A stretch of DNA of 35,212 bases from Nitrososphaerota archaeon (GCA_020053155.1 JAGVNS010000158.1:1-35212); one strand, 5' to 3'. Numbered from the stretch's first letter, positions 1 through 28,343 are shown. The notes: generated by a model not told the origin, from the letters alone. Translations and numbers: made by a program.

Positions 1-496
1 ATTGGATGTCCCTTCGAAAGGGTCGTTCTCCCGTAAATAAAATTTTTCCGTTCTCGCGGTAAATCAATCCCTTTATTTTCCCAAAAGGTTTGCCCTGACA
101 CAACTCAAGAAGGGTTTCTTCCCCCTCCTTCACGATTCCAAAATCAATGGAGGGACATTCCTCCAATACTTTTTCTTTTTCAGTTGAAATGTGCGCCGCC
201 CCTATCGCAATGGGAATGGATGGGAATGCGTTTTTGAGTTTGTTTATGAGGGCGTAACTGTCTTTGTACCGGTAGCTCTTCATGGCAATCCCGAGAAGGT
301 CGGGTTGGTAGGTTTTTATCTTTCGCACCAAATCGTCGAACGAGTATCCTAGACCCATGTCTAGTGTATCATAGTCAACCCCATTCGTGTGCAGGTATTC
401 CGCGATGTATCCCAATGCTAAATCTGGAACATCCCCCGGACGGTATGCGCTTTTGTAATAGGCGACGGGAATCAGCAATACTTTCTGGAAGCGCAT
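1..496 (-). CDS. Cobalamin (B12)-binding-domain radical SAM protein, N-terminal part only (gene runs off the window start)
   Basis: My own minus-strand translation from ATG 496..494 stays open to position 1 (MRFQKVLLIPVAYYKSAYRPGDVPDLALGYIAEYL...IAIGAAHIS...DFGIVKEGEETLLEL...IYRENGKILFTGERPF). The layout matches the N-terminal Rossmann-like B12-binding domains of the complete paralogs at 7642..9171 and 13482..15089. It is absent from the ORF track because it is truncated. It starts 3 nt after the stop of the upstream GT4 gene. Confidence 0.7.
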   Translation of the reverse strand, partial: MRFQKVLLIPVAYYKSAYRPGDVPDLALGYIAEYLHTNGVDYDTLDMGLGYSFDDLVRKIKTYQPDLLGIAMKSYRYKDSYALINKLKNAFPSIPIAIGAAHISTEKEKVLEECPSIDFGIVKEGEETLLELCQGKPFGKIKGLIYRENGKILFTGERPFRRDIQ

Positions 497-499
497 TGA

Positions 500-1621
500 T
501 TATTCCTCCGGCGTTTTCCTTATAATATCTGTCCCTTTTCCTGCTTTCTGTGGTACGGGAGAGGGGATAACTCCTTCGAGAAAATGGGGGCGGTTCCACT
601 GATGATGAACCTGTTTTCCCTTTTGGGCGCGTTGAGTTGTTTTTGAGCGAATGAGGGAGTGAAGGATGGAATTGAACCCCCCCCATGATGGGGCGGACTT
701 TCCCATGTGGGGGTTTTGCAAGAGGAATTTGGATAATTCTCCATTCTCTGGACACTTTGCCGCGACGGGAAGACCCGTTCCTGCGTAATCGAAAAGTTTG
801 ACCGGGATGCTGGTTGGCAGGTTGTCCTTCCAGGGAATAACTCCCACGTCCGCTCCTGAAAGATAGCGGGACATTTCAGTGAGGGGAACGTTTTCAACGA
901 TACGGTAATGGAATCCTTTTTCGTTGATTGCTTCTTCTATCTCTTTTTTTGAACGCTGGTCTGCGTCTGAGTTGTCCGTTGAAAAAATAAATACCAGGAA
1001 GCAGCGCGATGCTTTTTTATCGAGCGCGTGGATAAAACCCATGACATCTTCGTCCCCCACACCACCCGCATACGCAATCACGCAGTCCGCTTCCTTTACT
1101 CCCCACTCTTTTCGCATGCGTTGACGGAGAATGCGATCATACGTCAAGCGGGGGTCGGTTCCATTTGGAACCAGCACCGTTTTTTTGGGGGAAAGGGAAT
1201 ACCTCTCCATCGCTTCTTTCCGGTCGCTTTCCGTGAGAAACCAGAGGGTGTGCGCCCCGGAATAAATGATGCGCCGCAATTGCAGAAACATTTTTTCTTT
1301 CAATGAATGGTGTGCGCGTTTTAATATTTCCATGGCGCGCCCATCTTCCTTAGCGTCTAAAATGAATTGCGCACCTGCGAGGCGGGAGCCTAGCATCACC
1401 CAAAGTAGGGGAGGGAGGGGGGGAGACGTTCCCATGACAATGGTGGGTTTTTCTCTGAAAATGCTCCAGGAGAGGGAGAGACCCGAACCATTTTGGGGGG
1501 AGAGGAGAGTGGTGTAGTACCCCTTTTGGGAGAATGCCTTTTCAATGGCGTACACGCGCATTCCCGCGGCCCCGGGTTTTTGGGGAAGGTAGGGTGTGTA
1601 GAGGATTGCGGTTGGTTTCAT
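500..1621 (-). CDS. Glycosyltransferase, GT-B fold (GT4-like)
   Basis: The ORF track gives 500..1735. I prefer the internal ATG at 1621 (MKPTAILYTPY...) because it makes an ATGA stop/start overlap with the upstream gene at 1618..1621, and the extra 38 residues are basic low-complexity. GT4-like C-terminal domain: 'CVIAYAGGVG...', 'LSGADVGVIPW...PVKLFDYAGTGLPVAA'. Confidence 0.75.
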   Translation of the reverse strand: MKPTAILYTPYLPQKPGAAGMRVYAIEKAFSQKGYYTTLLSPQNGSGLSLSWSIFREKPTIVMGTSPPLPPLLWVMLGSRLAGAQFILDAKEDGRAMEILKRAHHSLKEKMFLQLRRIIYSGAHTLWFLTESDRKEAMERYSLSPKKTVLVPNGTDPRLTYDRILRQRMRKEWGVKEADCVIAYAGGVGDEDVMGFIHALDKKASRCFLVFIFSTDNSDADQRSKKEIEEAINEKGFHYRIVENVPLTEMSRYLSGADVGVIPWKDNLPTSIPVKLFDYAGTGLPVAAKCPENGELSKFLLQNPHMGKSAPSWGGFNSILHSLIRSKTTQRAQKGKQVHHQWNRPHFLEGVIPSPVPQKAGKGTDIIRKTPEE

Positions 1622-2661
1622 GCGTTGGTGTCCCCTGCAAGCTGGTTTATGTTTTCTCTTATTTTTTGGGTGAATGTGTGTATTGAAAAACGTTTTTTTA
1701 TTTCGTGCAGGGTTTTCTTTCCTGGGCGTTCCCATTCCTCCATCAACGCTTTTTCAAAATTAAGGGGGTTGTGGGGAATGAGTGTTATTCCTTTTTCGTT
1801 GAAGTCATGAAATATGCCCACCCGCGATGTGATGACGGGGCAGCCGCTGGCCAATGCTTCCAATGGAACAAACCCAAATCCCTCATAGCGGGAAGGAAAA
1901 ACAAGCACGTCCGCTGCCCGATAAAAATCAGCCAGTTTTTCAGGAGGTTGGGGGGGGTGCATGACCGTGTTTTCATTTTCATTGGGTAGGAACGGGGTGC
2001 ACACGCAATGGAATCTGGTTTCATGCATCCGGGAAGAGAGGTATTGAATAATGTAAAAACCCTTTGAATGCGTGGGGTTGCCCACAAACAAAACGATTTT
2101 TTCTCCCAAACCCATTCCACATCTTTTTCGTGCCTTTTCTTTGTTTCCAGGATGGAATACGCGGGTGTCGATGGGCAGTTCAACCACGTGGGGGTTTACT
2201 CCATAAAAATGGCGGGCATCCTTTTGGGTGAAGGGTGAGTTGGCTAAAACCCTTTTCCCATTCTGCGCGCTTTTTTTTTCGTAATGCGAAAAGACGTGGC
2301 GCATGCGCCAGTAAATGGGGTCCCATTTGGAATAACCGGCTTCGGCCAGACCGGCATACGTTCCATGGAGAAAAGAAATGAGGGGAATGCCCGTCTTTGT
2401 CGGTTCCATGGCCCACCCGTGCATTCCATTGGCGATGATGAACGGGGGTTTTGTGGGCAGGGAAGAAACGTATCGCGCGAGGTTTTTTCCATGCTCTATC
2501 TCGGAGAGGTAGGGTAGTCCTTTTTGGTCGAAACCATTTTTGTTGAGCGTCTCTTTTCCCACGATTTGAATTTCAGGAATGGCTTTTTTGATGGCGCGAG
2601 AAAAAACTTCCACCCCCCCCGGAATGGAATGTTCAGTAAGCGTGAGCAGGAGCGGGTTCAT
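1618..2661 (-). CDS. Glycosyltransferase family 4 (GT-B)
   Basis: The ORF track gives 1618..2685. The ATG at 2661 (MNPLLLTLTEHSIPGGVE) gives an ATGA overlap with the upstream stop at 2658..2661. Classic GT4 motifs are present: 'IVLFVGNPTHSKGF' and the EX7E region 'VFPSRYEGFGFVPLEALASGCPVI'. Confidence 0.85.
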   Translation of the reverse strand: MNPLLLTLTEHSIPGGVEVFSRAIKKAIPEIQIVGKETLNKNGFDQKGLPYLSEIEHGKNLARYVSSLPTKPPFIIANGMHGWAMEPTKTGIPLISFLHGTYAGLAEAGYSKWDPIYWRMRHVFSHYEKKSAQNGKRVLANSPFTQKDARHFYGVNPHVVELPIDTRVFHPGNKEKARKRCGMGLGEKIVLFVGNPTHSKGFYIIQYLSSRMHETRFHCVCTPFLPNENENTVMHPPQPPEKLADFYRAADVLVFPSRYEGFGFVPLEALASGCPVITSRVGIFHDFNEKGITLIPHNPLNFEKALMEEWERPGKKTLHEIKKRFSIHTFTQKIRENINQLAGDTNA

Positions 2662-4157
2662 TTTCCAATCCCTCCTTTTTTCCATATAGTGAGATTAAAA
2701 CCATCGGAATGTGTCGTTAATTTTTGAAGCTCCGGTGAGTGAGCCGTAATGAACTCCTTGATTATTTTTCGTTCCCCATCAATGATGTCCTGGCGTTTTC
2801 CATCCTTGTCTTGCTGAGTCGCATACGAAACATCAATCACGTAATATTCACTTTCAAGAATGGATGGGGGGGTTTGGTCAACCTTGTAGTAATGCTTTGC
2901 CCCAAAGACCGGGGATAGGAAATAAATGCAGTCGTCCGCACTCCCTATTACGGTGGCGTTTGGGGGAATGGTGTTTTGGATAATGGATGAAATTTCCTGC
3001 CGGGGCTCCGCCAGCTCGTAATGGGAGGCATTGAGGAAAAACAATCCCATTCCCGCGAGTAGGAGGAAGGCAATGAGTGCAACTTTTGGAGGAATTTTTG
3101 AAAAAGAGGAATGAGAACGGAATTGGGCAATCCAAGCGTGATAAAGAGAGAGAGAGGGAATGAGGAGCATTCCCGCAAGGGGAAGGAAATACCGCAGACG
3201 CGCCGTGAACGTGAGGGGGAGCGAAAATGGCAGGTCCCAGAAATTGGTGAAATGCGAGAAGAAGAAAACGTATCCCGCGAACAGGGCGGCAAACAAGGGC
3301 CATTCTTTCCGTTGTTCCAACCTGAAAATAGCGCCCACTGAAAAAGGAACAGCGATGAAGAGGAGAAGAATGTAGGTCAGGGCATTTTTAACGAAATATG
3401 GATTCAACTGCTGTCCTATCTGCTCCCCCACACTTCCATAGCCGGTGGAGAGAGCCCCCCCATAGTTGATAGTGTTGAATCCAAAAAAAAGAAGCGCGGG
3501 AATCAACCCCCCCAAAATGAGTGGAAGAATTTTGGGTCGCTCCTTCACCAACGCTTGGACCAAAAAAGCCGCCGGTCCGATAATGGCATCCACGCGGAAA
3601 AAGACCGACAATCCAAGCAAGAGGCCCGCTCCAAGGGTTGAACGGAAACCCTTTTTCATCCACAAATAATAAGCCCCTAAAAATAGAGTGAGTACGCTCA
3701 ATTCAGGGAAAAGGGTGCGCGCTTCCCATGCGGCAGCGGGGAAAAAAAGGTAGAGCAGGGAATAGTTTACCGGGACGTTTTTTTCCTTGAGAATGAAATA
3801 AATCAGGATAAGATTGAGCAGGTGGAGCAGGAGACCGGACGCAAACGAAAAAGAGAAAGGGAGAAAGGTGAATGGAATCAAGAGGAGTGAACGTCCAATG
3901 GAATAACTGGAAATGGATTTTGGCTGTGTAAGAGGGGTCATGACCCCCCCGCAATACAACGAAGGGTTTTCCGCTACTATCGTGCCTCCCTGCACCAAAA
4001 GGTGGGCGTTTTTCAGGTATTCGTGCTCATCAATGGAGACGTAGGAGGGGGGGTAATACACCCCAAAGAGAATTACGAAAAGGACAACTCCCGCCAAAAA
4101 GAACGGATTTTTTTTGGCCCATTCCATTGCCTGAATGAAATGCTTTTTGGCTGCCAT
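2658..4157 (-). CDS. Polytopic membrane protein, GT-C-like (ArnT/PMT_2-like polyprenyl-phosphate-sugar-dependent glycosyltransferase candidate)
   Basis: A 499-aa ORF with many hydrophobic helices followed by a soluble C-terminal domain of about 120 aa. It has an acidic first-loop motif 'YVSIDEHEYLKNAHLL' right after TM1, as in ArnT/PMT-type GT-C enzymes. It is the first gene of a minus-strand operon, with a TATA-like box 27 nt upstream. Confidence 0.65.
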   Translation of the reverse strand: MAAKKHFIQAMEWAKKNPFFLAGVVLFVILFGVYYPPSYVSIDEHEYLKNAHLLVQGGTIVAENPSLYCGGVMTPLTQPKSISSYSIGRSLLLIPFTFLPFSFSFASGLLLHLLNLILIYFILKEKNVPVNYSLLYLFFPAAAWEARTLFPELSVLTLFLGAYYLWMKKGFRSTLGAGLLLGLSVFFRVDAIIGPAAFLVQALVKERPKILPLILGGLIPALLFFGFNTINYGGALSTGYGSVGEQIGQQLNPYFVKNALTYILLLFIAVPFSVGAIFRLEQRKEWPLFAALFAGYVFFFSHFTNFWDLPFSLPLTFTARLRYFLPLAGMLLIPSLSLYHAWIAQFRSHSSFSKIPPKVALIAFLLLAGMGLFFLNASHYELAEPRQEISSIIQNTIPPNATVIGSADDCIYFLSPVFGAKHYYKVDQTPPSILESEYYVIDVSYATQQDKDGKRQDIIDGERKIIKEFITAHSPELQKLTTHSDGFNLTIWKKGGIGK

Positions 4158-4180
4158 ACTGAATCGCGGGAGTATGTTTG

Positions 4181-4188
4181 TTTAAATA
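4181..4188. promoter_or_regulatory. TATA-like box (TTTAAATA), probably bidirectional
   Basis: It is centred 27.5 nt upstream of ATG 4157 on the minus strand, which implies a leaderless mRNA. It could also drive the plus-strand operon starting at 4254, which has the SD-like sequence 'AAGGTGA' 5 nt before its ATG. Confidence 0.5.
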
Positions 4189-4253
4189 AGTAGGGGGGCT
4201 GAGAATAGTCACCCAGCCCATGACCGGGTTGTACAATCATCAAAAGGTGATTC

Positions 4254-5141
4254 ATGCCTTTCTCAAACGATAAAACAGATTTTGTGAGTGTACTCATTCC
4301 CGCGTACAATGAAGCGGACTCCATCGCCGAAACCATTCGGCGCGTCGAGAGTGTGCTGAAAAAAAATAGCGTGCGGGGAGAAATAATCGTTATCAATGAT
4401 GGGAGCTGCGATGGAACGCCAGAAAAAGTGGAAAAAATGCGTGGAGTCATTCTGTTGTCCCACCCTGCCAATCGGGGATATGGGGCCAGCCTCAAAACGG
4501 GTTTGCGCGCTGCCAAAGGAAACTGGATTTTCATCACGGATGCAGATGGAACGTACCCCATTGAGGACTTTCAATCCCTGTGGGAAAAAAGGGCCCATTT
4601 CGACATGGTAGTAGGGGCGAGGAATCCCACCAGCCAGCACATTGCATGGATACGTAAGCCGGGAAAAATACTGTTATCCCTCATTGCTAATTATTTGGTA
4701 GGACGGAACATTCCCGACTTGAATTCGGGAATGCGGCTGTTCCGGAAGGATTTAGCCATGGAATTCTATCATTTGTACCCGCAGGGATTTTCATTCACCA
4801 TCACCATTACCCTGGCTTCGTTCGTAAACCATTATGCCGTGAAATACATTCCCATCGCGTACGCTGAGCGCGCCGGAAAATCAAAGATGAACGTGGTACG
4901 GGATGGACTTAATTTTATTTCCCTTATCTTTCGCGTCGTAACGTATTTCAATCCCGGTAAACTGCTCGTGCCGGTGGGAACCCTGCTCATACTCCTGGGT
5001 TTGCTCGTGGCGTATTACAGCACGTATTACTTGGGACAGTTCATGGATGCTACCACCGTTCTCCTCCTCCTCGCTGGATTTCAAGTTTACTTATTTGCAT
5101 TCATCGCCCAGCTCTGGGTCAAAACGAGGGCGTTGCGATGA
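4254..5141 (+). CDS. GT2 glycosyltransferase, GtrB/ArnC/DPM1-like polyprenyl-phosphate sugar synthase with two C-terminal TM helices
   Basis: 'VSVLIPAYNEADSI', 'VINDGSCDGT' and 'ITDADGTY' (the DXD motif). The C-terminus 'LLVPVGTLLILLGLLVAYY...LLLLAGFQVYLFAFIAQLW' is typical of GtrB-like enzymes. Confidence 0.85.
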   Translation: MPFSNDKTDFVSVLIPAYNEADSIAETIRRVESVLKKNSVRGEIIVINDGSCDGTPEKVEKMRGVILLSHPANRGYGASLKTGLRAAKGNWIFITDADGTYPIEDFQSLWEKRAHFDMVVGARNPTSQHIAWIRKPGKILLSLIANYLVGRNIPDLNSGMRLFRKDLAMEFYHLYPQGFSFTITITLASFVNHYAVKYIPIAYAERAGKSKMNVVRDGLNFISLIFRVVTYFNPGKLLVPVGTLLILLGLLVAYYSTYYLGQFMDATTVLLLLAGFQVYLFAFIAQLWVKTRALR

Positions 5142-6883
5142 AACAACACAAATCCATTGGCGCGGCGGACGCCTACCGAAAGGAAGCACTCGAACAGATT
5201 CCTCGGCTCTTAAGTCTCATGGACCGCAATCCCTTTTCCCCCACATATGGGTGTGCGGACCGCACGTATTGGTTGGACAAAGCCATTGATTTTCCAAGCT
5301 CCATCATGCAATACAGCGTCCACTCCCTCGCATTGGTGTATGCGCATGATTTTCAGGGGAACGACTACTATCACCAACCCAAAATAAGGGAATGGATACT
5401 GGCTTCCATTTCATTTTGGGAGAAGATTCAGAAGAATGATGGAAGCTTTGACGAATTTTACCCCAATGAAAGGGGGTGGGCGGGTCCCACCGGATTTTTG
5501 CTGTATGCCATGCTCTCTGCGCATGAATTACTGGGGAATGAATTTCCCTCTGAACGAAAAGAATCGTTTTTCAACGCGTGCAGAAAGGCCGCGTTGTATT
5601 TGGCGAAGTATGATGAACATGGAATTCTGGCCAACCACCACGCCATGGCCCTGCTTCCCATATATTATGCGTCCATTACCCTGAAAGAAGATGTCCTCCT
5701 CTACAATTTTGGGGAAAAACTGGATTACCTGCTAGGTCTCCAATCCAAGGAGGGGTGGTTCCTGGAATATGATGGAGCGGATTTGGGTTATTTGTCCGCC
5801 ACCATTTCATTTTTGACCAAACTCATCACCCTCCTGTCACGGGACGCACGACATGGGGAATGGAAAAAGAAAATAGAGGAATGCATTCCCCGCGCCATTG
5901 ATTTTGCATCCTACTTCGCCTACCCCAATGGGTATTATGCGGGAACCATGGGCAGCCGGCAGACGCTGCACTTTTACCCGCATGGTTTTGAATTATGGGG
6001 GAGAAAAAACGATAAAGCCGCAGGGGTGGCAGACTGGCTGGCAAAAGGTTTGTCGGAGGGAGCACTCGTTCCCCCGAGCATCATGCCCGACCGATACGTT
6101 GCGTACCGCGTGAACGAATTTTTGCAATCCTACCTGGATGCATTCCCGCGTAACACGGGAAAAATAGGAAGGCTTCCCTGGAAGGAAAAACCATTTATTC
6201 AATTCTTTCCAGAAGCCAAAATGGGAATTAAAAATACCCTCTCTTATTATGCGGCAATCAATCTGGCCAAGGGAGGCGTGCTCAAACTCTTTGACAAAAA
6301 ATCAGGAAAACTTTTCGCCAACGATTGCGGCGTGCTGTTGGAGGATAAAGAGGGGAACACGCTCACTTCCCAATGGATCGACCCCACATATCGCGTGGAA
6401 TTTTCCCCCGAAGGGTGCACGGTCTCTGGTCTCATGCACGTATGGGTTACGGAACTTCCTACCCCCCTCAAAATGATGGTTCTACGCTCTGCTCTCATTA
6501 CATTGGGAGAGAGCACGAGATTGGCATACAAAATAAAGGGAAAAATTAGGGAACGAATCATTCTCAAAAACAAAGCCGTACCCATTTCATTCCAGCGAAA
6601 TATCACATGGGAAAAATCCGGGTGCCACATTTCCGATCACATTGACGCGAGGGAGTATCCTTCTTCGTTTCTCCGCGGAAGGGTTGGGGATGAATTCTCC
6701 ATTCGGTACGTGCCCCAAAGCCTTTACTTTCAGGGACAGGAACTAAATGTTGAGGGAAGGTGGCTCACGCAAGGAGAAATAGAAGCGTTCAACCAAAAAA
6801 AAGAAGCAACCATTGAACAGACTATTGGGATTGGAATTCCGCACGTGACCCCAACCAAAACAAGAGGCGGGAAACGCGAATGA
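5138..6883 (+). CDS. Conserved-looking hypothetical protein (581 aa), function unknown; possibly an alpha/alpha-toroid N-half plus a beta-rich C-half
   Basis: A long ORF with ATGA overlaps to both neighbours (5138..5141 and 6880..6883). It has no TM segments or cofactor motifs that I recognise. The helical-repeat-like segments ('KNDGSFDEFYPNERGWAGPTGFLLYAM', 'SKEGWFLEYDGADLGYLS', 'ANHHAMALL') are only weakly reminiscent of heparinase II/III or prenyltransferase-type toroids. Confidence 0.8.
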   Translation: MKQHKSIGAADAYRKEALEQIPRLLSLMDRNPFSPTYGCADRTYWLDKAIDFPSSIMQYSVHSLALVYAHDFQGNDYYHQPKIREWILASISFWEKIQKNDGSFDEFYPNERGWAGPTGFLLYAMLSAHELLGNEFPSERKESFFNACRKAALYLAKYDEHGILANHHAMALLPIYYASITLKEDVLLYNFGEKLDYLLGLQSKEGWFLEYDGADLGYLSATISFLTKLITLLSRDARHGEWKKKIEECIPRAIDFASYFAYPNGYYAGTMGSRQTLHFYPHGFELWGRKNDKAAGVADWLAKGLSEGALVPPSIMPDRYVAYRVNEFLQSYLDAFPRNTGKIGRLPWKEKPFIQFFPEAKMGIKNTLSYYAAINLAKGGVLKLFDKKSGKLFANDCGVLLEDKEGNTLTSQWIDPTYRVEFSPEGCTVSGLMHVWVTELPTPLKMMVLRSALITLGESTRLAYKIKGKIRERIILKNKAVPISFQRNITWEKSGCHISDHIDAREYPSSFLRGRVGDEFSIRYVPQSLYFQGQELNVEGRWLTQGEIEAFNQKKEATIEQTIGIGIPHVTPTKTRGGKRE

Positions 6884-7563
6884 AAAATGTTTCCGTTGAC
6901 CATGCAGAACAAGCCGTTTTTTGGGAAAAGAAACGAGAAAAAAGAATGCCCACTCATCCCGCAGTTGAGGCGTTTGCCAAACCCAAAGTAGAAGCGATTG
7001 CCAAAATGATAGGAGTCAATTCCCAGACTCATGTGCTTGACGTGGGGTGTGGGAATGGTTTTTTCACGCATTACTGGAAGGAAAAAACCCCCCACGTCAT
7101 CGGAATCGATTTTAGCCAGGAAATGCTGATGAAAAACCAGAACCCCCTTCGCGTTCGGGGACGCGCCGAAGCGCTACCCTTCAAGGACCAATCCTTTGAC
7201 GTAGTATTCTGTTCCAATCTCCTCCATCATGTCGAAAGACCCGTCGATGTAGTCAAGGAGATGGTGCGCGTCTCCAAGAGACACGTCGTATTGTCGGAGC
7301 CCAATGCCCGGAACCCATTCATGAATCTTTTTTCACGAATCGTAAAAGAGGAAAATGGAGCGTTGAAATTTAATCCGGGGTACCTGCAAAGCATTACCAA
7401 CAATGCAGGGTTGCGTGAATTGTATTTGGGGGAGGAAGGGAGTGTGGTTCCTAACAAAACGCCTGGGTGGGCCGTTCCCATTCTGTCTCCTTTCAACGGA
7501 CCCATGGGGGGGGGATTTTACATCGTGTATGTGGGCGACCGTCTAGATATGGTCGAATATTGA
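6880..7563 (+). CDS. Class I SAM-dependent methyltransferase (Methyltransf_11-like)
   Basis: Motif I 'VLDVGCGNGFF', then 'LPFKDQSFDVVFCSNLLHHV' and 'LSEPN'. Confidence 0.85.
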   Translation: MKNVSVDHAEQAVFWEKKREKRMPTHPAVEAFAKPKVEAIAKMIGVNSQTHVLDVGCGNGFFTHYWKEKTPHVIGIDFSQEMLMKNQNPLRVRGRAEALPFKDQSFDVVFCSNLLHHVERPVDVVKEMVRVSKRHVVLSEPNARNPFMNLFSRIVKEENGALKFNPGYLQSITNNAGLRELYLGEEGSVVPNKTPGWAVPILSPFNGPMGGGFYIVYVGDRLDMVEY

Positions 7564-7641
7564 GTAAATTTCCCCCTTTTGGGTGGGCGTTTTATTAATG
7601 GTTTTTTCCCCATTCTTGGTATGGATGCTGGCTATTCCAAA

Positions 7642-9171: not shown

Positions 9172-9190
9172 AAAAAGGGTTGAAAAAAGA

Positions 9191-10786
9191 ATGAAAAACG
9201 ATATTCCGGTTTGGGTGTGGGTACTCATTATTGGCCTGCCCTTGCTTTCTTCCCTGCCCATTTTGGGGGGATATCTAGCCAGCAGTCCCCCGGAACGCGT
9301 ATTCATGGGATTTGATTTCATTGACGATTTTCACTATTATGGGAATTACATCCATTCGTATGAAAACAATCCGTTGGATTTTTTTATTCTTAACCGCTCC
9401 ACATCCGAAAATCAGGATGGGCGTTTCTTTTTTCCTTATTTTTGGATTACGGGATTGGTGAGCACGGGAGTGGGGGTGGCGCTCGCCCTTGCATTCATGC
9501 GCATCCTCACGGGGATTATTCTCCTTTTCTTGGTATGGAAAATTTTGGAATACTTTTTTCCAGAACCCTTCTGGAGAAAAACAGCTTTTGTGTTAGCGTG
9601 TTTGGGAGCAGGTTTTGGGTGGATTACACACGTTTTAGGAATTTTCATTCCTGCGCTGGGAAAATTGTATTCCACCGACCTAACCTACTCGTTGGGGTAT
9701 AGTTTGTTCGGGTACTTGAGCTTCCCCCTCGCCATCGCGGGAGAGGCGTTATTTTTAGCCGGTCTCCTTTCTCTTTTTTTATTTTTGGAAAAAAAAGACA
9801 AAAAATACGCGTTTTTTTTCGGTCTGTCATTAATAGGAATTTTTTTTACCCATCCCGTGAGCGCCGTTACTTTTTTTCCCGTGTTTTTAGGAGGTGCGTT
9901 GTTATATTTAGTCCAAAATCCTTCGCATAAAGAGATTTTATCATTCAAAAATGTCGGGTTGGCATTTGCGGGAGCCCTGGTCCTCATTGGAATGTACGTA
10001 TGGTGGGCGTTACAGGACCCCGTTTTTCAATCGGTTTTCTTTTCGTATGGGCTTTGGCAACGAAGCGAAAGCCCCTTCTGGTGGATTTTGGGGTATGGGC
10101 TCATTCTCCTCTTTGCCCTATTGGGAGTGCGAACCCTGCAAATCGAAAACAAGCATGCGCGGGCATTCTTTTGGGCATGGTTATTGGTCATTCTCGTGCT
10201 GAGTTTGAATCCATGGAAGGGACTGCGCTTCCAGCATGCGCTTTTCATTCCATTGGTGATTCTGGCAACCTCTGGTATTCGGAGCGCATGGGATTGGATT
10301 CAAAAAAGCCCATATTCATCATGGGTCAAAACCCGGAACGCATGGGTGGGATTGATTTTAGTGATTATGGTCCCTGGAGTATTGTTCACGCTCGCCAACC
10401 ATATAAAGGACGTGCAGAATCCTTCCTTTCACAGCGGACCTTTTTTGTCACAGGAACAGATTGACGCACTAGAATTTTTAGAGGGTCAACGACCCGGAAT
10501 CGTTTTGTCCAATTACAAACTAGGGAACAATTTGATTTGGATGACTTCACATTATGCGTACTTAGGTCACTGGAATCAAACAACGGATAGGGAAGAAAAG
10601 ACTCTAAATGTGGAATCGTTTTTCAATGGAAAGATGACCACAACGCAAGCCATTTCATTTATTGCCACTGAAAAAATAAATTACATTCTGCGCGAGGGAA
10701 CGGAAACCATCCCCCCCCAACTTAATGGAGTGGAACGCATTTATCAGAACGGGACCCTTTTCATATATCGGGTGGCCGCGCCGTGA
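9191..10786 (+). CDS. Polytopic membrane protein with soluble C-terminal domain, GT-C-like candidate
   Basis: A 531-aa protein with more than 10 hydrophobic segments. It has an acidic first loop 'FMGFDFIDDFHYYGNY' after TM1 and a C-terminal non-membrane domain of about 120 aa. It lies in the same operon as the rSAM and a flippase-like gene. Confidence 0.65.
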   Translation: MKNDIPVWVWVLIIGLPLLSSLPILGGYLASSPPERVFMGFDFIDDFHYYGNYIHSYENNPLDFFILNRSTSENQDGRFFFPYFWITGLVSTGVGVALALAFMRILTGIILLFLVWKILEYFFPEPFWRKTAFVLACLGAGFGWITHVLGIFIPALGKLYSTDLTYSLGYSLFGYLSFPLAIAGEALFLAGLLSLFLFLEKKDKKYAFFFGLSLIGIFFTHPVSAVTFFPVFLGGALLYLVQNPSHKEILSFKNVGLAFAGALVLIGMYVWWALQDPVFQSVFFSYGLWQRSESPFWWILGYGLILLFALLGVRTLQIENKHARAFFWAWLLVILVLSLNPWKGLRFQHALFIPLVILATSGIRSAWDWIQKSPYSSWVKTRNAWVGLILVIMVPGVLFTLANHIKDVQNPSFHSGPFLSQEQIDALEFLEGQRPGIVLSNYKLGNNLIWMTSHYAYLGHWNQTTDREEKTLNVESFFNGKMTTTQAISFIATEKINYILREGTETIPPQLNGVERIYQNGTLFIYRVAAP

Positions 10787-11748
10787 ATTTCATAGTATCA
10801 TTTTTATCCAATCGAATCGTGCGCGCGGCCCTCGCCATTATTTTGATTGGGGGGGTTATTGTGTTGGCGAACCCCCTTGAATCCTTACCCGTTATTCTGG
10901 AGGCAGGACCCGCGTTACTGCTCTGGTTAGTGGGGGGATTCATTGGAATCATTATTGTCAATGCGTTAAGTGTGTGGTGGGTCTTGGGATTGAGGCATGG
11001 CATTTCACTCATTCGTATTTTGCGTCATTATGCGTGCAGTTGGAGCACTGAGTTCTATTTTCCTGGCAAATTAGGAATGTTTTCCCTGACCTACTTTCTA
11101 AAAAAAGAGAACGTGGAAGTGGGGGAAAGCGTGGCGGCTATTTTATTGATTAAAATGACCATGCTGATATGGCTATTCGCGTTGAGTTTGCTGGCGGTGG
11201 GAAATCTCCTAACCGCAAACGATTTTTTACTCTATTTAGGGACGCTTGTCATTGTCATTGGGGGGTTGGGAATCCTTTTTTTGACGGAGGGAGGGAGACA
11301 TTTTGTTCGGTATACCATCCTTGGGAAACATGCGGCTCACTTTGTTGGGTTTTCGAAGCTGGTTAAAACCGTTATTCAGCGCCCCACCCAATGGATGGGG
11401 TTGTTTATCCTCGTCTTTTTGAGCATTTTAATGAATGGAATCATGGTTCAAGGATTGTTTGCCGAGGTGGGATACCCACTCGATTTACTGACCATATTGG
11501 GGGTTGTTTCCTCTACCATTTTAGTGGGATTAATTCCACTCACCCTCAACGGGTTAGGCGTCAAAGAGGGTGCATTGATCGTACTCATGAGCTTGCATGG
11601 CGTTCCAACGGAAATCGCCGCGAGTGTAGGGTTGTTGAGTACCGCTACGGGGTACGTAATGTCCCTCCTCATTATGGCGTTCGTTTTGAAAGAAATTCCA
11701 TCTGTCCTTTTGAAAGGAGAAATGCCTCATGCGCGTCGCCCTGCTTAG
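10783..11748 (+). CDS. Flippase-like integral membrane protein (LPG_synthase_TM / UPF0104-like)
   Basis: GTG start in a GTGA overlap with the upstream stop. An 8-TM-like profile with 'FPGKLGMFSLTYFL' in the position of the family's P-G-R-x-G-D/E motif. It is a paralog-like counterpart of 26341..27342. Confidence 0.6.
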   Translation: MNFIVSFLSNRIVRAALAIILIGGVIVLANPLESLPVILEAGPALLLWLVGGFIGIIIVNALSVWWVLGLRHGISLIRILRHYACSWSTEFYFPGKLGMFSLTYFLKKENVEVGESVAAILLIKMTMLIWLFALSLLAVGNLLTANDFLLYLGTLVIVIGGLGILFLTEGGRHFVRYTILGKHAAHFVGFSKLVKTVIQRPTQWMGLFILVFLSILMNGIMVQGLFAEVGYPLDLLTILGVVSSTILVGLIPLTLNGLGVKEGALIVLMSLHGVPTEIAASVGLLSTATGYVMSLLIMAFVLKEIPSVLLKGEMPHARRPA

Positions 11749-12826
11749 CCCCCGCTCTCCGGTGTCGAACGCGGCCGGAATCGAGCAAAACATTCACCAC
11801 GTTTCGCACTATTTGAGCAAAAAGGGAGTAAATGTTGAGGTCTTTTGTACGACGTTTCACGCTCAACGAACGCTTACCCGGGATGGGATTTCCATTCATG
11901 AATTTCCAGCATTTGCACCTAAGGATAACTACTTTCTTTCCACCCCCCTCTATCACGCCCTGCGAAAATGGGAGGGGGGTATCGTCCATTGCAACGGCTA
12001 CAACAATTTAGTGAGCGTGGTGGGAATAATGGCCAAAAAAAAGAACCAAAAACTGGTGTTTACGCTGAACAGCAGTGGCTCCTCTTCCCGTCTACGAGAA
12101 TTACTCCACATTCCCCTCGCGTGGTTTTATCATTTCAATCGAAAAAAAATAGACCATTTGGTGTGCGTCTCAAAATGGGAGCATGAACGGCTCGCTCCCA
12201 CGTTTGGGTTGAATAAAAAGGATGTTTCCATCATTCCCAATGGCATTTCCTTATCGGAATTCAAAAAGAAAGGGAAACGAAAAAAAGGAAAAATTCTGAG
12301 CGTCGGGAGATTAGTCAAAAACAAGGGAATGCATCACCTCATCGCGGCATTTGCGCACGTTCAAAAAGAAATGCCCGAGGCCCAACTTCACATTGTGGGA
12401 GAGGGACCCCAACGTGAAGAATTGGAACAACAAGCCCACGCGTTGGGTTTGAAATCAAACGTGTTTTTCCATGGAAACATTGGTTTTGAGGAACGCGAAA
12501 CGCTGTTGGAACATTATCGCACGGCTTCCCTTTTTTCTCTGTTGACGGAATACGAGAGTCAGGGAATCGTTTTCGCGGAAGCCGCAGCGGCAGGGCTTCC
12601 CATGGCAATCCCAAACAAAGGAGTCATGCGCGAATATGTGGAAGCTGGCCTTGCTGAGGGAATTCAGGATGGGTTTAATTCGGAGGAAGTGAGTAGGGTG
12701 TTGGTTCGATTATTACGGAAAAAAAGGAGTGCCAAAAAGCCATCCCTAAAACCCCTCATTTGGGATTGGAAAGAAGTGGGAGCGGCCGTGCATCATTTAT
12801 ACCAAAAGCTCGAGAAGGAATCCTAG
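11729..12826 (+). CDS. Glycosyltransferase family 4
   Basis: 'MRVALLSPRSP...GIEQNIHHVSHYL', 'ILSVGRLVKNKGMHHLI' and the EX7E region 'LLTEYESQGIVFAEAAAAGLPMA'. The SD-like 'AGGAG' sits about 10 nt upstream of the ATG. Confidence 0.85.
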   Translation: MRVALLSPRSPVSNAAGIEQNIHHVSHYLSKKGVNVEVFCTTFHAQRTLTRDGISIHEFPAFAPKDNYFLSTPLYHALRKWEGGIVHCNGYNNLVSVVGIMAKKKNQKLVFTLNSSGSSSRLRELLHIPLAWFYHFNRKKIDHLVCVSKWEHERLAPTFGLNKKDVSIIPNGISLSEFKKKGKRKKGKILSVGRLVKNKGMHHLIAAFAHVQKEMPEAQLHIVGEGPQREELEQQAHALGLKSNVFFHGNIGFEERETLLEHYRTASLFSLLTEYESQGIVFAEAAAAGLPMAIPNKGVMREYVEAGLAEGIQDGFNSEEVSRVLVRLLRKKRSAKKPSLKPLIWDWKEVGAAVHHLYQKLEKES

Positions 12827-13501
12827 ATGTCGCTCAAGAAAGGAGAGTACGCCCCCTTCGTGGAATTTGACCAAAAAATGTCGGCCAAGCTCAAACCTCA
12901 ATTGGAAGAATGGTTTGCATCCATGCGTGGGAAAAACGTCCTGGATATTGGATGTGGGAGCGGGGACGTGGGGGCATTGTTGAGAGGGCGAATGGACGTG
13001 TATGGGGTGGACGAGCAATCCCTTGCGTTGAAAGCCGCCCAAACAAAAGGAATCAAAACAAAATTATCCTCCATTGAAAAGAATCTCCCTTACCCTTCTT
13101 CTTTCTTCGACAACGTCATTTGCAAAGATGTATTTGAACACTTGGTGCACCCCCACGACCTACTCAGGGAAATTCATCGTGTGTTGAAGGGCGGGGGAAA
13201 ATTATACGCTCACGTTCCCAATCAGTTTACGCTGTTGGACCGGATTCAAATTTTTGGGGGGAGAAGCATGGTGGTAAAACGTTGGTTTGAAGGAAGCGAG
13301 GAATGGAACTTTCCCCATTTGCGTTTTTTTACTCATTCGGGGTTTAGGGAGTTCCTGGAGAGTAATGGGTTTGAAGTAGAGAAAGAGTATTCGAATATCT
13401 GGAGTTACTCAATAGGAGGGGGAATGAATACCCGCTCTTTAAGCGGATTGTCCCCCGGACTTTTTTCTCCCGGGTTCACGTTTACTTGCCGGAAGAAGTA
13501 G
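12827..13501 (+). CDS. Class I SAM-dependent methyltransferase (Methyltransf_11-like)
   Basis: 'VLDIGCGSGDVGALL' and 'FDNVICKDVFEHLVHPHDLLREIHRVLKGGGKLYAHVPN'. The ATG directly abuts the upstream TAG. Confidence 0.85.
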   Translation: MSLKKGEYAPFVEFDQKMSAKLKPQLEEWFASMRGKNVLDIGCGSGDVGALLRGRMDVYGVDEQSLALKAAQTKGIKTKLSSIEKNLPYPSSFFDNVICKDVFEHLVHPHDLLREIHRVLKGGGKLYAHVPNQFTLLDRIQIFGGRSMVVKRWFEGSEEWNFPHLRFFTHSGFREFLESNGFEVEKEYSNIWSYSIGGGMNTRSLSGLSPGLFSPGFTFTCRKK

Positions 13502-15089
13502 CGGTTATTTCGGACGCAGGAATGACTTCCTTATTTTTGGGTTTAGAGGAATAGGGAGAAACGTTCTTGGCAATCATTCGGGGCAATCGGTCGAACACCA
13601 GGAATTTTCCAAGCGTAAAAAAGGATTTGGCATAATCCATTTTTCTGGAACTGCGGGCCATCTGGCGGAGTATCATTTTCATGGACGTAGAAGGGGTTAA
13701 TTGTTGCAAGGGAGAATTGAAGCGAATGTTATCCTCCGAAACCAGCTTGTCCAAATCCAGCGAGTGCTTTGCTACGACAAATTTGGTGGGCATTTTCCAT
13801 TCCGCTTCTTTGAAATAATGGTAATCCTCTTTTCCACTGGCAATCTCATCGTATATTTGGGAACCCGGGTAGGGGGTCATGAGCCCAAACGAAACGGTGG
13901 TGGGTTTTATTTTGGCAATCAGTTCCTGATTCATGCGAACGTCTTCCTGGGTTTCACCGGGGAGGTTGTACATCATGTTGGCAAACGTACGGATTCCCAA
14001 TTTATGGCAAATTTCAAATGCTTGGTGGATTTTCTCTACCTTACAATTCTTGTTCACCGCATCCAGCATGGCCTGGGAACCGGATTCCACTCCAAAATCG
14101 ATTTGAATGCAGCCCGCTTTTTGCATCCACGTCAACAATTCCTCATCCACTTTATCCACGCGCGTCTCTGCTCCCCAAACAAAGGGTATTTTTCGCTCAA
14201 TGAATTCCTTACAAATGTCAATGACGTGGGATTTCCAGACACAAAAATCGTCATCATAAAAATAAATCCCATCCACGTTGTATTTTTTGACCAATAACTC
14301 TACTTCATCTGCCACCGCTTTGGCGGAGCGAAAACGAATGGGTTTTTTGGTTTCATTGTATCGCCAAACGGAGGGAATGGCACAAAACGTGCAGTGTGCG
14401 GGACACCCGCGCGAGGCAAACACATACATGGATGCCAATGGGAAATAGCGAATGGCATAGGGATTAGGCTGCGTGTAGAAGGACATGTCCACTCGCTCAT
14501 AGGCGGGCATGGGTACGTTATCCAATGGTTCGATGAGGGGACGGAGGAGGGTTTTTTGAATATGGTCCTTTTCCCAAAATGAAATGCTTTGAATGGAATG
14601 AAACGCTTCTCCTTGTTTTTGGTCCAGAATGGCACGCGTCAATTCCCTAAAGGTTTCCTCTCCCTCCCCAACAACCACGTAATCAATGGGGCTGTTTTCA
14701 AAAATGAAATCTTCCGGGGCCAAGGATGAATGTTGTCCCCCCACGATTATTGTAGTGTTTATTTCAGATTTGATTCGTTTGGCAAAAGAGAGAGTGTAAT
14801 CCACTTCGTGCGTGAACGTTCCCATTCCCACCATGGTGGGGCGCATGTCTTTCAGCATTTCTATTATTTTTTCTTCTAACTCACGCGCTTTGGGGCTCTC
14901 TAGTTCAAGTATTTTCAAATCCTTGACTTTCAGGTCAATCAGTTCAACGGAAATTCCGTGCTTTTCAAGATAGGAACAAATGGTCATGAGTCCGAGGGGA
15001 GGTCTCGTACTGTGCGCCCGGCTTGGAAGGGAAATCAGACAAATGTCGGGGTGTTCATGAATCCTGTGGGATTTTTTTTCCTCAACCAT
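13482..15089 (-). CDS. Cobalamin-binding-domain radical SAM enzyme (class B rSAM family)
   Basis: 'IIVGGQHSSLAP...DYVVVGEGEETFRELT', a CX3CX2C motif 'SRGCPAHCTFC', and 'IDFGVESGSQAML'. Its 3' end overlaps the convergent methyltransferase by 20 nt. Confidence 0.9.
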   Translation of the reverse strand: MVEEKKSHRIHEHPDICLISLPSRAHSTRPPLGLMTICSYLEKHGISVELIDLKVKDLKILELESPKARELEEKIIEMLKDMRPTMVGMGTFTHEVDYTLSFAKRIKSEINTTIIVGGQHSSLAPEDFIFENSPIDYVVVGEGEETFRELTRAILDQKQGEAFHSIQSISFWEKDHIQKTLLRPLIEPLDNVPMPAYERVDMSFYTQPNPYAIRYFPLASMYVFASRGCPAHCTFCAIPSVWRYNETKKPIRFRSAKAVADEVELLVKKYNVDGIYFYDDDFCVWKSHVIDICKEFIERKIPFVWGAETRVDKVDEELLTWMQKAGCIQIDFGVESGSQAMLDAVNKNCKVEKIHQAFEICHKLGIRTFANMMYNLPGETQEDVRMNQELIAKIKPTTVSFGLMTPYPGSQIYDEIASGKEDYHYFKEAEWKMPTKFVVAKHSLDLDKLVSEDNIRFNSPLQQLTPSTSMKMILRQMARSSRKMDYAKSFFTLGKFLVFDRLPRMIAKNVSPYSSKPKNKEVIPASEITATSSGK

Positions 15090-15113
15090 ATATGAATATC
15101 CCGCCTCACGCGC

Positions 15114-16139
15114 CTATAAAGAGTTTGAGTGTGTTGGGAGTACCTTTTCAAGCATGCTCCGTCGCCACGCGAGCAACTGCATTTCCTGAAGCTGGCGTTG
15201 CTGCTTGAGCATGGACCCGATAAGACCCATGATGGCAAACTGGAAACCCAAAAGGAGGCAGAGAACAGTGAAGACCGCGCTGGGAAGATATGGTTCAATG
15301 GCTCCCGTATTCAAAAATTGGGAAATGACGCGACTGCCCGAAAGGAGACCCACGAGGATAATAGCCCCTCCCATCGTGAAAAACGTACGCAGGGGATGGT
15401 ATCGAAGCATTCCTAATAGGAGCGTAGCGCTCGCGCGTCGGGCATAACTCCAGACCGAACCAAAGAGCCTATTTTCTCCATCCATTCGTTTTCGGAAAGT
15501 GATGGGAATCTCTTCGATGCAGAGATTTTTGTCTACCACCTCGAGAATGGTTTCCTGCGTATACGTAAAATTGGACAACACGTTTAATCGCAGGGCGGCA
15601 TCCCGCGTAAATGCGCGAAAACCCGTTTGACCATCGCTCACATTTGCACCCGAGACGAAATTAACGGCCCATGTCGCCATTTTGTTTCCCCAATATTTTC
15701 CAAAAGACATGTGCTCAATGTGTCCCAGGAAACGGGAACCCAGCACCATGTCTGCACGCTTGTGCAAAATGGGTTCAATCAAATGTGGAATTTGGGACTG
15801 GTCGTATTGATTGTCTCCATCCGTATTCACAATGACATCTGCCCCTAATTTGAGGGCGGTATCAATGCCCTTACGGAATGAATAGGCTAACCCTTGGCGG
15901 GAGGCATTGGAAATGATGAGCGCCCCTGCTTCCGTGGCTTTGGGGACGGTGCGGTCCACGCTTCCATCGTCAATGACAAGGGGAATAACCACATCCACCC
16001 CTCGCATCTCTCGGGGAATGCTTTCAATAACCGCCTTAATGGTGGCCTCTTCGTTATGGGCAGGAATCATTACCACTACTTTGACTCCCGATTTGGGTTT
16101 CAGTTCAGCTGCCAATTTTGCGGAGGTTCGAAGGACCAT
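15114..16139 (-). CDS. GT2 glycosyltransferase, GtrB/DPM1-like polyprenyl-phosphate sugar synthase with C-terminal TM helices
   Basis: The ORF track start at 16157 is a TTG. The ATG at 16139 (MVLRTSAKL...) sits 27.5 nt downstream of a TATA-like box. 'VVVMIPAHNEEATI', 'VIDDGSVDRT', 'VNTDGDNQY', and the C-terminal 'GGAIILVGLLSG...LLGFQFAIMGLIGSML'. Confidence 0.85.
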   Translation of the reverse strand: MVLRTSAKLAAELKPKSGVKVVVMIPAHNEEATIKAVIESIPREMRGVDVVIPLVIDDGSVDRTVPKATEAGALIISNASRQGLAYSFRKGIDTALKLGADVIVNTDGDNQYDQSQIPHLIEPILHKRADMVLGSRFLGHIEHMSFGKYWGNKMATWAVNFVSGANVSDGQTGFRAFTRDAALRLNVLSNFTYTQETILEVVDKNLCIEEIPITFRKRMDGENRLFGSVWSYARRASATLLLGMLRYHPLRTFFTMGGAIILVGLLSGSRVISQFLNTGAIEPYLPSAVFTVLCLLLGFQFAIMGLIGSMLKQQRQLQEMQLLAWRRSMLEKVLPTHSNSL

Positions 16140-16162
16140 ATACTTGGAATGGTCCAACGAGC

Positions 16163-16225: not shown

Positions 16226-16270
16226 CGCGTCAACCCAGCCTTTTTCAACCTATAGATGGGGTATTCCTGT

Positions 16271-18039: not shown

Positions 18040-18053
18040 AAACGAGGAACAGC

Positions 18054-19228: not shown

Positions 19229-19250
19229 CATGAAAAAAGGAGAATCGGGC

Positions 19251-21132: not shown

Positions 21133-21153
21133 AGGGTTTCTAAACCTCTGACC

Positions 21154-21163
21154 TATTAAAATA
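21154..21163 (-). promoter_or_regulatory. TATA-like box (near-palindromic TATTAAAATA)
   Basis: Centred about 26.5 nt upstream of ATG 21132 on the minus strand, which implies a leaderless transcript. Confidence 0.45.
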
Positions 21164-21170
21164 GGAGAGG

Positions 21171-28225: not shown

Positions 28226-28286
28226 GGGATTCACTCCCCTCCTTTTTTACCATGGAGGAGGGGCCAATACGCAAGAAGCGATAAAC

Positions 28287-28296: not shown

Positions 28297-28343
28297 CACT
28301 TCGCGTACAGTGGGGCTATCCATTCCATTTTGGGGGAAAAACA

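Follow-up and report, generated by a model that had tools for sequence, protein, structure and literature searches.

Which substrate could three radical S-adenosylmethionine (SAM) enzymes with a B12-type domain act on in the middle of an archaeal glycosylation island? The question is raised by a contig of 35,212 bp (GCA_020053155.1, JAGVNS010000158.1:1-35212), listed under the name Nitrososphaerota archaeon. The complete contig, which comes from an uncultivated archaeon, is the window analysed here. Its closest named relatives are metagenome-assembled genomes of 'Candidatus Diapherotrites archaeon' (among them locus L090), and by this placement the source is a DPANN archaeon, Diapherotrites/Iainarchaeota-like. 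A sequence-only reading of the window had pointed out the three genes among glycosyltransferases and had put its emphasis on C-methylation. Here we argue, with moderate confidence, that the three enzymes are cytoplasmic tailoring enzymes which modify a polyprenyl-phosphate-linked sugar before it is flipped, within three-component modules of extracytoplasmic glycosylation.

Three radical SAM genes with a B12-type domain

We refer to the three genes as rSAM1 (1..496, minus strand), rSAM2 (7642..9171, plus strand) and rSAM3 (13482..15089, minus strand). Pfam detected the B12-binding domain PF02310 in all of them, with E-values of 7e-17 for rSAM1, 7e-21 for rSAM2 (open reading frame 7579/7642-9171) and 1.8e-19 for rSAM3. 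The corresponding scores of 61.8, 74.7 and 70.2 bits lie well above the cutoff of 32.1, and all domain motifs quoted in the sequence-only reading were recovered in the translations. The two complete genes also carry the radical SAM core PF04055 (rSAM2, 2.4e-25 and 90.1 bits; rSAM3, 4.2e-21 and 76.3 bits), together with the expected CX3CX2C cluster motif, which is SRGCAFDCIHC in rSAM2 and SRGCPAHCTFC in rSAM3. The first gene is cut by the left contig end, as had been said. It has to be read on the minus strand, however, from a start at 496 leftward off the contig, and its visible part is the B12 domain only. Its cluster motif is known solely via a full-length ortholog of 474 aa with CPEKCTFC (L001:1460-2884, minus strand). 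Among PDB sequences, the B12 domain could be aligned to the true cobalamin enzymes OxsB (from residue 62), TsrM, TokK and MgmA. By these sequence criteria, the three genes are predicted to encode class-B-type radical SAM enzymes, with an N-terminal B12-type Rossmann domain followed by a [4Fe-4S]/SAM core.

The three genes had been described as paralogs. They are indeed related, but they do not represent a local expansion: their pairwise identity is 24-29%, they fall into three separate orthogroups, and an 831-kb contig at about 50% identity (L005) holds one ortholog of each. Recent local paralogy is thereby ruled out, and the three genes belong to old orthogroups. The family is also a large one, with 4561 homologs found for rSAM2. 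Clusters of this kind in Bathyarchaeota, Omnitrophota, Elusimicrobia and Patescibacteria commonly contain arrays of two to seven B12-type radical SAM genes, so that three copies within 16 kb, which had been called unusual, are ordinary for this family.

A probable glycosylation module around the radical SAM genes

Coordinates, Pfam and NCBIfam resolve the island into three tightly packed transcription units. Unit A, on the minus strand, reads TM499, GT4b, GT4a and, as its last gene, rSAM1. Unit B, on the plus strand and mostly with 4-nt overlaps, reads GT2a-DUF581-MT227-rSAM2-TM531-LPG_synthase_TM-GT4c-MT224. Unit C, on the minus strand again, is a two-gene operon of GT2b followed by rSAM3. 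The glycosyltransferase and flippase-like setting reported earlier was recovered. Unit B has the make-up of a three-component glycosylation module: next to a predicted synthase of lipid-phosphate sugars it encodes a candidate flippase and a protein of the GT-C type, and it carries four genes of putative cytoplasmic tailoring enzymes, rSAM2 among them.

The family 2 glycosyltransferases (GT2) GT2a (4254..5141, plus strand; PF00535, 6e-28) and GT2b (15114..16157, minus strand; PF00535, 5.3e-17) each end in two C-terminal transmembrane helices. GT2a, of the ArnC/DPMS/GtrB/AglJ type, matched ArnC (9hwj, 3.4e-17), Pyrococcus DPMS (5mlz) and GtrB (5ekp) in the PDB, and the DPMS/AglJ-like GT2b matched DPMS (5mlz, 1.9e-14). 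The best NCBIfam models of the two were AglJ, Dol-P hexose transferase, ArnC and PpgS, all below cutoff (GT2b scored 133 bits against the AglJ model). Judged from these similarities, both are nearest to enzymes that place a single sugar on polyprenyl phosphate, which is the GT2 activity expected of a three-component system.

The GT-C component of unit B is TM531 (9191..10786, plus strand). It returned no Pfam match, including in a relaxed scan with E up to 5, and a Pfam scan of 56 of its relatives gave DUF6541 in three of them and nothing else. A full-library HMMER search yielded 1180 representatives of the family. Whereas shallow profiles of six TM531 sequences and three TM499 sequences found no match among PDB sequences, the 56-sequence TM531 profile matched Archaeoglobus AglB (3waj) at 1.1e-4. 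The AlphaFold (AF2) model reached a predicted local distance difference test score (pLDDT) of 94.7, and the top 20 Foldseek matches were all GT-C proteins, namely STT3 (2.7e-8), AglB (3e-8), DPY19, AftA, PglB and ArnT, with E-values from 2.7e-8 to 2.5e-5 and TM-scores of 0.45-0.59. Asp46, in the first extracytoplasmic loop, is invariant. The modelled fold thus shows TM531 to be a GT-C protein, the type of transferase that belongs to a three-component system.

The sequence-only reading had spoken of GT-C-like membrane proteins in the plural. TM531 can be counted as such by its fold, but for the polytopic TM499 (2658..4157, minus strand; 499 aa) a GT-C-like role is only suspected from its sequence. 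TM499 had neither a Pfam match (E up to 5 included) nor a PDB sequence match. Its weak NCBIfam match is to the AZOBR_p60025 glycopolymer formation family (7.9e-6, below cutoff), an invariant IDEHEY motif follows its first transmembrane helix, and the protein is conserved in L001 and L003. A third polytopic protein of 548 aa, TM548 (22043-23689, plus strand), lies further along the window; TM499 and TM548 show no detectable homology to each other's profile. Since hhalign likewise revealed no homology of the TM531 family to TM499 or to TM548, we do not claim three GT-C paralogs.

DUF581 (5138..6883, plus strand) is counted among the tailoring genes. It has no Pfam match, and relaxed scans (E up to 5) of DUF581, TM499, TM531, TM548 and their orthologs gave nothing useful. 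Its 1195 homologs keep about 50% identity across phyla (DPANN, Patescibacteria, Omnitrophota and Eisenbacteria; loci L087, L088, L089 and L057 are further examples), and some are fusions of about 788 aa with a class I methyltransferase. The AF2 model (pLDDT 88.9) is an (alpha/alpha) toroid with a beta-sandwich, and Foldseek matched it to 1rwa (1e-8) and 6hzn (1e-7). This fold is shared with uronate-acting lyases of the families PL8, PL12, PL15, PL17 and PL33, as well as with dermatan sulfate epimerase 1, a C5-epimerase. The invariant residues include N166-H167 and several Tyr and Arg, which we take to resemble the Asn-His...Tyr motif of uronate lyases. DUF581 lacks a signal peptide, and some lineages have it as a fusion with SAM enzymes; we therefore regard it as cytoplasmic. 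DUF581 also anchors a five-gene cassette of GT2, DUF581, methyltransferase, LPG_synthase_TM and GT-C, which occurs with or without radical SAM genes.

The remaining genes of the three units fit the same setting. LPG_synthase_TM (10783..11748, plus strand) is a flippase-like membrane protein (PF03706, 5.8e-23; TIGR00374 'flippase-like' domain, 1.1e-5, below cutoff) that is present and syntenic across loci. Two class I SAM-dependent methyltransferases are encoded by MT227 (6880..7563, plus strand; Methyltransf_11, 7.5e-23) and MT224 (12827..13501, plus strand; Methyltransf_11, 9.1e-18), the latter convergent with rSAM3, with 20 nt shared between the two genes. Three GT4-type glycosyltransferases complete the units: GT4c (11729..12826, plus strand; Glycos_transf_1, 8.8e-30; Glyco_transf_4, 1.9e-19), GT4b (1618..2685, minus strand; Glycos_transf_1, 1.5e-17; Glyco_transf_4, 1.3e-11) and GT4a (500..1621, minus strand), a GT-B (GT4-like) enzyme with weak matches to Glyco_trans_4_4 and Glyco_transf_4 and a 360-aa GT4 ortholog in L001. 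The likely start of GT4a is MKPTAILY at 1621, in a 4-nt overlap with the GT4b stop.

This set of partners bears on the idea that the radical SAM enzymes modify the lipid rather than the sugar. They would then methylate, cyclise or cross-link the polyprenyl/dolichyl carrier or membrane lipids, in the manner of HpnP/HpnR, GrsA/GrsB, Gmm or the ladderane enzyme, and for a DPANN cell this could mean remodelling of lipids taken from the host. Many class B enzymes do modify lipids, and GrsA/B fall into the same B12 megacluster (PMC13459092). The ladderane-lipid model gave 126-136 bits for our enzymes, LPG_synthase_TM is by its Pfam name the lipid-flippase domain of MprF, and a geranylgeranyl reductase is encoded in the window at 31154-32305. 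Against these points, the conserved partners are polyprenyl-phosphate GT2 enzymes, GT-C proteins, GT4 enzymes and a DUF581 of carbohydrate-enzyme fold, and the same cassettes occur in bacteria, which have no archaeal lipids. The lipid methylase model HpnR scored 84-93 bits against a cutoff of 650, in a comparison outside which the GrsA/B, Cds and Gmm sequences lay. We consider modification of the lipid improbable, and retain the lipid-linked sugar as the preferred substrate.

The association is conserved across phyla

The sequence-only reading had proposed to look for the glycosyltransferase neighbourhood in related genomes. We found the whole island to be syntenic in the archaeal contigs L001-L004 and L090, at 69-83% identity. 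The GT2-rSAM3 pair is retained in L003 and L090, and in relatives two further genes follow the rSAM1 unit, a convergent one for a class I methyltransferase and one for a Polysacc_synt protein of the Wzx type. The block GT2-DUF581-methyltransferase-GT-C-rSAM3-rSAM2 is found again, in addition to the rSAM1 ortholog, in L005 at about 50% identity. A link to the synthesis of glycans or lipid-linked sugars is conserved in these archaeal relatives as well as in bacteria of several phyla.

In bacteria, the order GT2, one to four B12-type radical SAM genes, LPG_synthase_TM recurs in Patescibacteria, FCPU426 and Chitinispirillaceae. Three FCPU426 loci (L010, L013, L014) have GT2, radical SAM and LPG_synthase_TM genes consecutively, with a PMT_2 GT-C gene nearby. 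The Chitinispirillaceae locus (L095) reads GT2, two radical SAM genes and LPG_synthase_TM, adjoined by a methyltransferase, a PMT_2 protein and a second GT2, and the Portnoybacteria locus (L094) reads GT2, radical SAM, methyltransferase, radical SAM, radical SAM, LPG_synthase_TM, radical SAM. In the Patescibacteria locus L008, a GT2, a polysaccharide deacetylase and a radical SAM gene are followed by a single open reading frame of 797 aa (L008:11440-13833, plus strand; JBAZMW010000002.1), in which B12-binding, radical SAM and LPG_synthase_TM domains are fused. Fusion of an rSAM3-like enzyme to a class I methyltransferase was seen (P0140), with such a fused gene flanked by GT4 genes in Omnitrophota (L091), and Nealsonbacteria (L092) carry an rSAM3-like gene in a glycan cluster. 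Synteny across phyla rules out a lineage-specific, accidental co-localisation with glycosyltransferases.

We also counted neighbours in those GTDB loci in which the sequence extends 3 kb or more to either side of the radical SAM gene. These loci are among the matches listed (600 pattern matches), with close orthologs under-sampled, and only the window's own proteins served as queries, so that the counts are lower bounds. A glycosyltransferase or sugar-nucleotide enzyme lies within 5 kb of the radical SAM gene in 31 of the 53 loci, and in 13 of 17 for the closest homologs. The density of glycosyltransferases and methyltransferases is highest within 2.5 kb.

The same neighbourhoods allow a further explanation to be weighed, according to which the enzymes would act on soluble nucleotide sugars (linked to deoxythymidine or uridine diphosphate) before transfer to the lipid. 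They would then be C-methylases, dehydratases or epimerases, like those of aminoglycoside and deoxysugar pathways (GenK, GenD1, AprD4, DesII-like logic). Such a role would suit the RmlA-like, RmlB-like, DegT and epimerase genes that adjoin the island, as well as the bacterial rSAM3-like genes that lie among RmlB-like, FdtA, DegT and TylCIII-like genes (L092). AprD4 is moreover the best PDB sequence match, but this alignment (6fd2) is restricted to the radical SAM core, residues 200-432, and does not span the B12 domain. The order GT2, radical SAM, flippase-like gene in several phyla, the fusion of a radical SAM enzyme to LPG_synthase_TM and the minimal cassettes with no adjacent nucleotide-sugar genes (L010) all speak for a substrate that is already on the lipid. 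Action on soluble nucleotide sugars appears unlikely to us, and the lipid-linked sugar remains the substrate that we prefer.

The three enzymes lie outside the named families

For family placement, NCBIfam model scores were used as a proxy for phylogeny, a comparison outside which GenK, GenD1, Fom3, HpnP, Cds, GrsA/B and Gmm lay. The best models for all three enzymes were HpnJ and BchE, with scores less than half of their cutoffs. Against HpnJ (TIGR03471; equivalog cutoff 577.6), rSAM2, rSAM3 and the rSAM1 ortholog scored 229.5, 169.8 and 159.1 bits respectively, and against BchE (TIGR02026; cutoff 481.35) 225.1, 178.0 and 111.6 bits. Behind these two models ranked P-methyltransferases, ApyD, the ladderane enzyme, BzaD, AprD4 and MgmA. 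The diol dehydratase AprD4 (NF033070) gave 121.7, 85.2 and 65.8 bits against 500, HpnR (TIGR04367) 58-93 against 650, KedN5 (NF033712) 52-88 against 700, and MgmA (TIGR04014) 86-114 against 360. Judged by the curated cutoffs, the identification of rSAM1-3 as HpnJ, BchE, AprD4, HpnR, MgmA or ApyD is rejected, and none of the three belongs to a named family. Clustering with a well-characterised non-glycan family, which would have spoken against a role in glycosylation, was not observed. As the neighbourhood is also conserved, the core idea of the sequence-only reading withstands both of the tests that had been named for it.

The gene content of the window agrees with this placement. No Pfam or NCBIfam match to a hopanoid context (shc, hpnH, hpnI, hpnK) was found anywhere in the window, and the same searches found no tetrapyrrole or bacteriochlorophyll genes in it. 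Because tetrapyrrole genes are absent and the organism is a non-phototrophic DPANN archaeon, the name 'anaerobic Mg-protoporphyrin cyclase' carried by homologs is an over-annotation. The name 'YgiQ' is an over-annotation as well.

The ranking does include models of peptide-modifying enzymes. The radical SAM enzymes might thus act after assembly, on the completed glycan, a surface protein or a ribosomally synthesised peptide (C-methylation as by PoyC and ApyD), with the glycosylation genes as mere neighbours. ApyD, a model for enzymes of ribosomally synthesised and post-translationally modified peptides (RiPPs), gave 134-169 bits and the RiPP C-methyltransferase model TIGR03975 gave 82-118, far under their cutoffs of 750 and 282. 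A large surface protein with fn3 domains is encoded at 28167-30767, but neither a gene for a precursor peptide nor a RiPP recognition element was seen. Radical SAM enzymes require the cytoplasm for their chemistry, while completion of the glycan takes place outside the cell, and the adjacency of GT2 and flippase-like genes is conserved across phyla. We hold post-assembly action to be very improbable, and set out below how tailoring of a lipid-linked sugar would proceed.

A proposed mechanism and its weak points

In the proposed scheme, GT2a and GT2b would each transfer one sugar from a nucleotide sugar to dolichyl or polyprenyl phosphate at the inner membrane face, as their homologs do. The adjacent radical SAM enzyme would cleave SAM reductively, and the resulting 5'-deoxyadenosyl radical would take a hydrogen from an unactivated carbon of the lipid-linked sugar. 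For this step, gene adjacency, conservation across phyla and the fusion to a flippase-like protein are observed, and we infer from them that the lipid-linked sugar is the substrate. The class I methyltransferases and DUF581 might modify the same intermediate further, the LPG_synthase_TM protein would flip the finished donor, and TM531, whose fold is that of GT-C enzymes, would transfer the sugar to an external acceptor. The partners of rSAM1 are different, namely two GT4 enzymes, a polytopic membrane protein and, in related contigs, a flippase of the Wzx type, so that its substrate may instead be an oligosaccharide linked to a lipid.

The outcome of the radical step is more difficult to predict. 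C-methylation by the methylcobalamin route is favoured tentatively, at somewhat short of an even chance, because class B methylases typically come in multi-paralog arrays, as do the enzymes here in series of two to four, and because methylases predominate among class B enzymes. Other chemistry, such as epimerisation, dehydration or oxidation, is also conceivable, although we would not expect it. An HpnJ/Cds-like rearrangement of the lipid-linked sugar seems rather unlikely, and would be favoured for at least one enzyme by the affinities to hidden Markov models and by the GT2-deacetylase-radical SAM order in L008. The emphasis on C-methylation in the sequence-only reading is not specifically indicated by our data, in which the nearest families, HpnJ and BchE, are non-methylating.

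Several observations weigh against this scheme. LPG_synthase_TM, the candidate flippase by sequence, belongs to a family distinct from the proven or proposed GtrA, SMR and MATE flippases. A glycosyltransferase or sugar gene was not detected within 5 kb in 22 of the 53 GTDB loci with the window proteins as queries, and the counts of 31/53 and 13/17 and the density figures stand without a random-locus control. A Dehalococcoidia homolog (L093) has no glycosyltransferase nearby, only a radical SAM/SPASM gene. In addition, the cassette GT2-DUF581-methyltransferase-LPG_synthase_TM-GT-C exists without any radical SAM gene in L087 and L088, so that the radical SAM enzyme is an optional accessory and not part of the cassette core. 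Concerning the cofactor, AprD4 and ArsL occupy the same sequence space, yet bind no cobalamin (PMC12931638), and cobalamin use by rSAM1-3 is accordingly putative. A DPANN cell would probably need to import cobalamin.

On the side of cobalamin supply, genes for DUF4430 and DUF6580 proteins lie directly upstream of the rSAM3-like gene of Nealsonbacteria (L092:6945-7970, plus strand; CP179891.1). DUF4430 is the C-terminal domain type of transcobalamins (PMC4350170). The two genes may be a cobalamin-supply pair, and with it a hint that this radical SAM family uses cobalamin.

Further genes of the window

Downstream of unit C, Pfam identified a block of sugar-nucleotide and glycosylation genes (16256..23689), which is also present in L003 and L090. 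It encodes an RmlB-like dehydratase (16256-17269, plus strand), an RmlA-like protein (17266-18039, plus), a split GT4 (18054-18452 and 18449-19228, both plus), a DegT aminotransferase (19200-20351, plus), GT2c (20338-21132, minus) and an epimerase (21171-22055, plus), and ends with TM548. The two GT4 genes, of 132 aa (N-terminal part) and 259 aa (C-terminal part), overlap by 4 nt. L003 and L090 have the gene divided in the same way, and a similar pair is found in Nealsonbacteria (L092), where an unannotated 142-aa gene precedes a 254-aa GT4-type gene. For this reason the split GT4 looks, at the sequence level, like a genuine two-subunit glycosyltransferase and not like a frameshift.

A fourth radical SAM gene (24778-26121, plus strand) is of the SPASM type, without a B12 domain, and has the motif CGLKCPGC and weak Pfam matches. 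It sits between a gene for an AsnC-type regulator with a double helix-turn-helix (23720-24682) and a second LPG_synthase_TM gene (26341-27342). Elsewhere, a radical SAM/SPASM gene adjoins the rSAM2 homolog in L093, and one is fused to such a homolog in P0110 (819 aa).

The fn3 protein mentioned above (28167-30767, plus strand) is a predicted surface protein of 866 aa with fn3 and immunoglobulin-like domains, Thr/Ser-rich stretches and a C-terminal hydrophobic anchor, and is a candidate acceptor glycoprotein. The first ATG of its open reading frame overlaps an HtpX-like gene on the opposite strand, and the true start is therefore probably further downstream. The geranylgeranyl reductase gene follows, and the segment 32000-34000, around a gene for an AAA_14-type ATPase (32410-33750), has a G+C content of about 0.40 as compared with about 0.48 elsewhere. 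Scans for tRNA genes and Rfam families returned nothing in the window.

Implications

Put at its broadest, and held as a possibility that we would not yet expect to be right in every part, the proposal is that a large, cross-domain family of B12-type radical SAM enzymes uses radical chemistry to modify monosaccharides directly on their polyprenyl phosphate carrier. As many as four of these enzymes might work in series, by C-methylation, carbocycle-forming ring contraction or epimerisation. GT-C enzymes would then install the resulting C-branched or carba-sugars at the surface of DPANN archaea, Patescibacteria and further uncultivated lineages. To the three components of such glycosylation systems the radical SAM enzymes would add a fourth, which tailors the sugar by radical chemistry, with DUF581 and its methyltransferase in the same pathway.

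Attachment to other cells is the way of life of DPANN archaea and Patescibacteria, and surface glycans are therefore probably central to it. If the proposal is true, three-component glycosylation would gain a new class of reaction, and a function could be given to thousands of genes mis-annotated as 'BchE-like' or 'YgiQ-like'. It would also imply unprecedented sugars (C-methylated or carbocyclic), new biocatalysts for unactivated C-H bonds of sugars, and a testable handle on why genome-reduced symbionts retain cobalamin-type enzymes. Searches of the open-access literature gave no paper in which B12-type radical SAM enzymes are connected with polyprenyl phosphate sugars, three-component systems, DPANN, Diapherotrites or archaeal N-glycosylation. 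Both the superfamily of the enzymes and the scheme of glycosylation are known, but within the literature searched we met no description of the two in combination, of the LPG_synthase_TM partner or of DUF581.

Comparison with known systems

The closest precedent for the radical step is the synthesis of bacteriohopanetetrol cyclitol ether. HpnJ, a radical SAM enzyme with a B12 domain, is presumed to act on a sugar that a neighbouring GT2 has put on a membrane lipid. It belongs with HpnI (the GT2) and HpnK, which also act on the lipid-linked sugar, and the archaeal functional analogue Cds forms calditol (PMC13459092). For each of our three enzymes, HpnJ ranks first or second among the NCBIfam models, and the order GT2, deacetylase, radical SAM in L008 recalls its gene set. 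However, the scores are 159-230 bits against 577.6, and hopanoid or GDGT (glycerol dialkyl glycerol tetraether) genes are absent here. The lipid of our system would be polyprenyl phosphate, and the sugar a donor rather than a head group. The deacetylase of L008 is of the Polysacc_deac_1 and not of the YdjC type of HpnK, and several radical SAM paralogs in series are not explained by a single ring contraction.

BchE, the anaerobic Mg-protoporphyrin IX monomethyl ester cyclase, shares the domain architecture and size of our enzymes and is their best or second-best NCBIfam model. In its pathway, BchE acts after the class I methyltransferase BchM, and here a class I methyltransferase gene neighbours each radical SAM gene. 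By contrast, the scores are below 481, tetrapyrrole genes are absent and our host is a non-phototrophic DPANN archaeon. The aminoglycoside class B C-methyltransferases GenK, GenD1 and Fms7 are likewise cobalamin-domain radical SAM enzymes acting on unactivated sugar carbons, and several paralogs may occur in one cluster. Their substrates, however, are soluble pseudo-oligosaccharides of actinomycete secondary metabolism, and no specific affinity was seen, as judged by the methylase models KedN5 and HpnR (52-93 bits) in a comparison that did not extend to GenK.

For the glycosylation scheme itself, the precedents are GtrA/GtrB/GtrC, ArnC/ArnD/ArnEF/ArnT, DprE1/E2 with the arabinosyltransferases, and the archaeal AglD/AglR/AglS. 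As in these three-component systems, a polyprenyl-phosphate GT2, a flippase candidate and a GT-C protein are encoded together here. The differences are that our flippase candidate is LPG_synthase_TM and not GtrA, SMR, MATE or Wzx, and that the cassette includes DUF581, with its lyase/epimerase fold, and methyltransferases. We know of no three-component system with a radical SAM enzyme as auxiliary enzyme. Modification before flipping has precedents, since the auxiliary enzymes ArnD, DprE1/E2 and ORF13 alter sugars linked to undecaprenyl phosphate or polyprenyl phosphate at this stage (PMC11127046). By analogy, the system described here would work like three-component glycosylation with an HpnJ-like radical step added, as a member of neither family.

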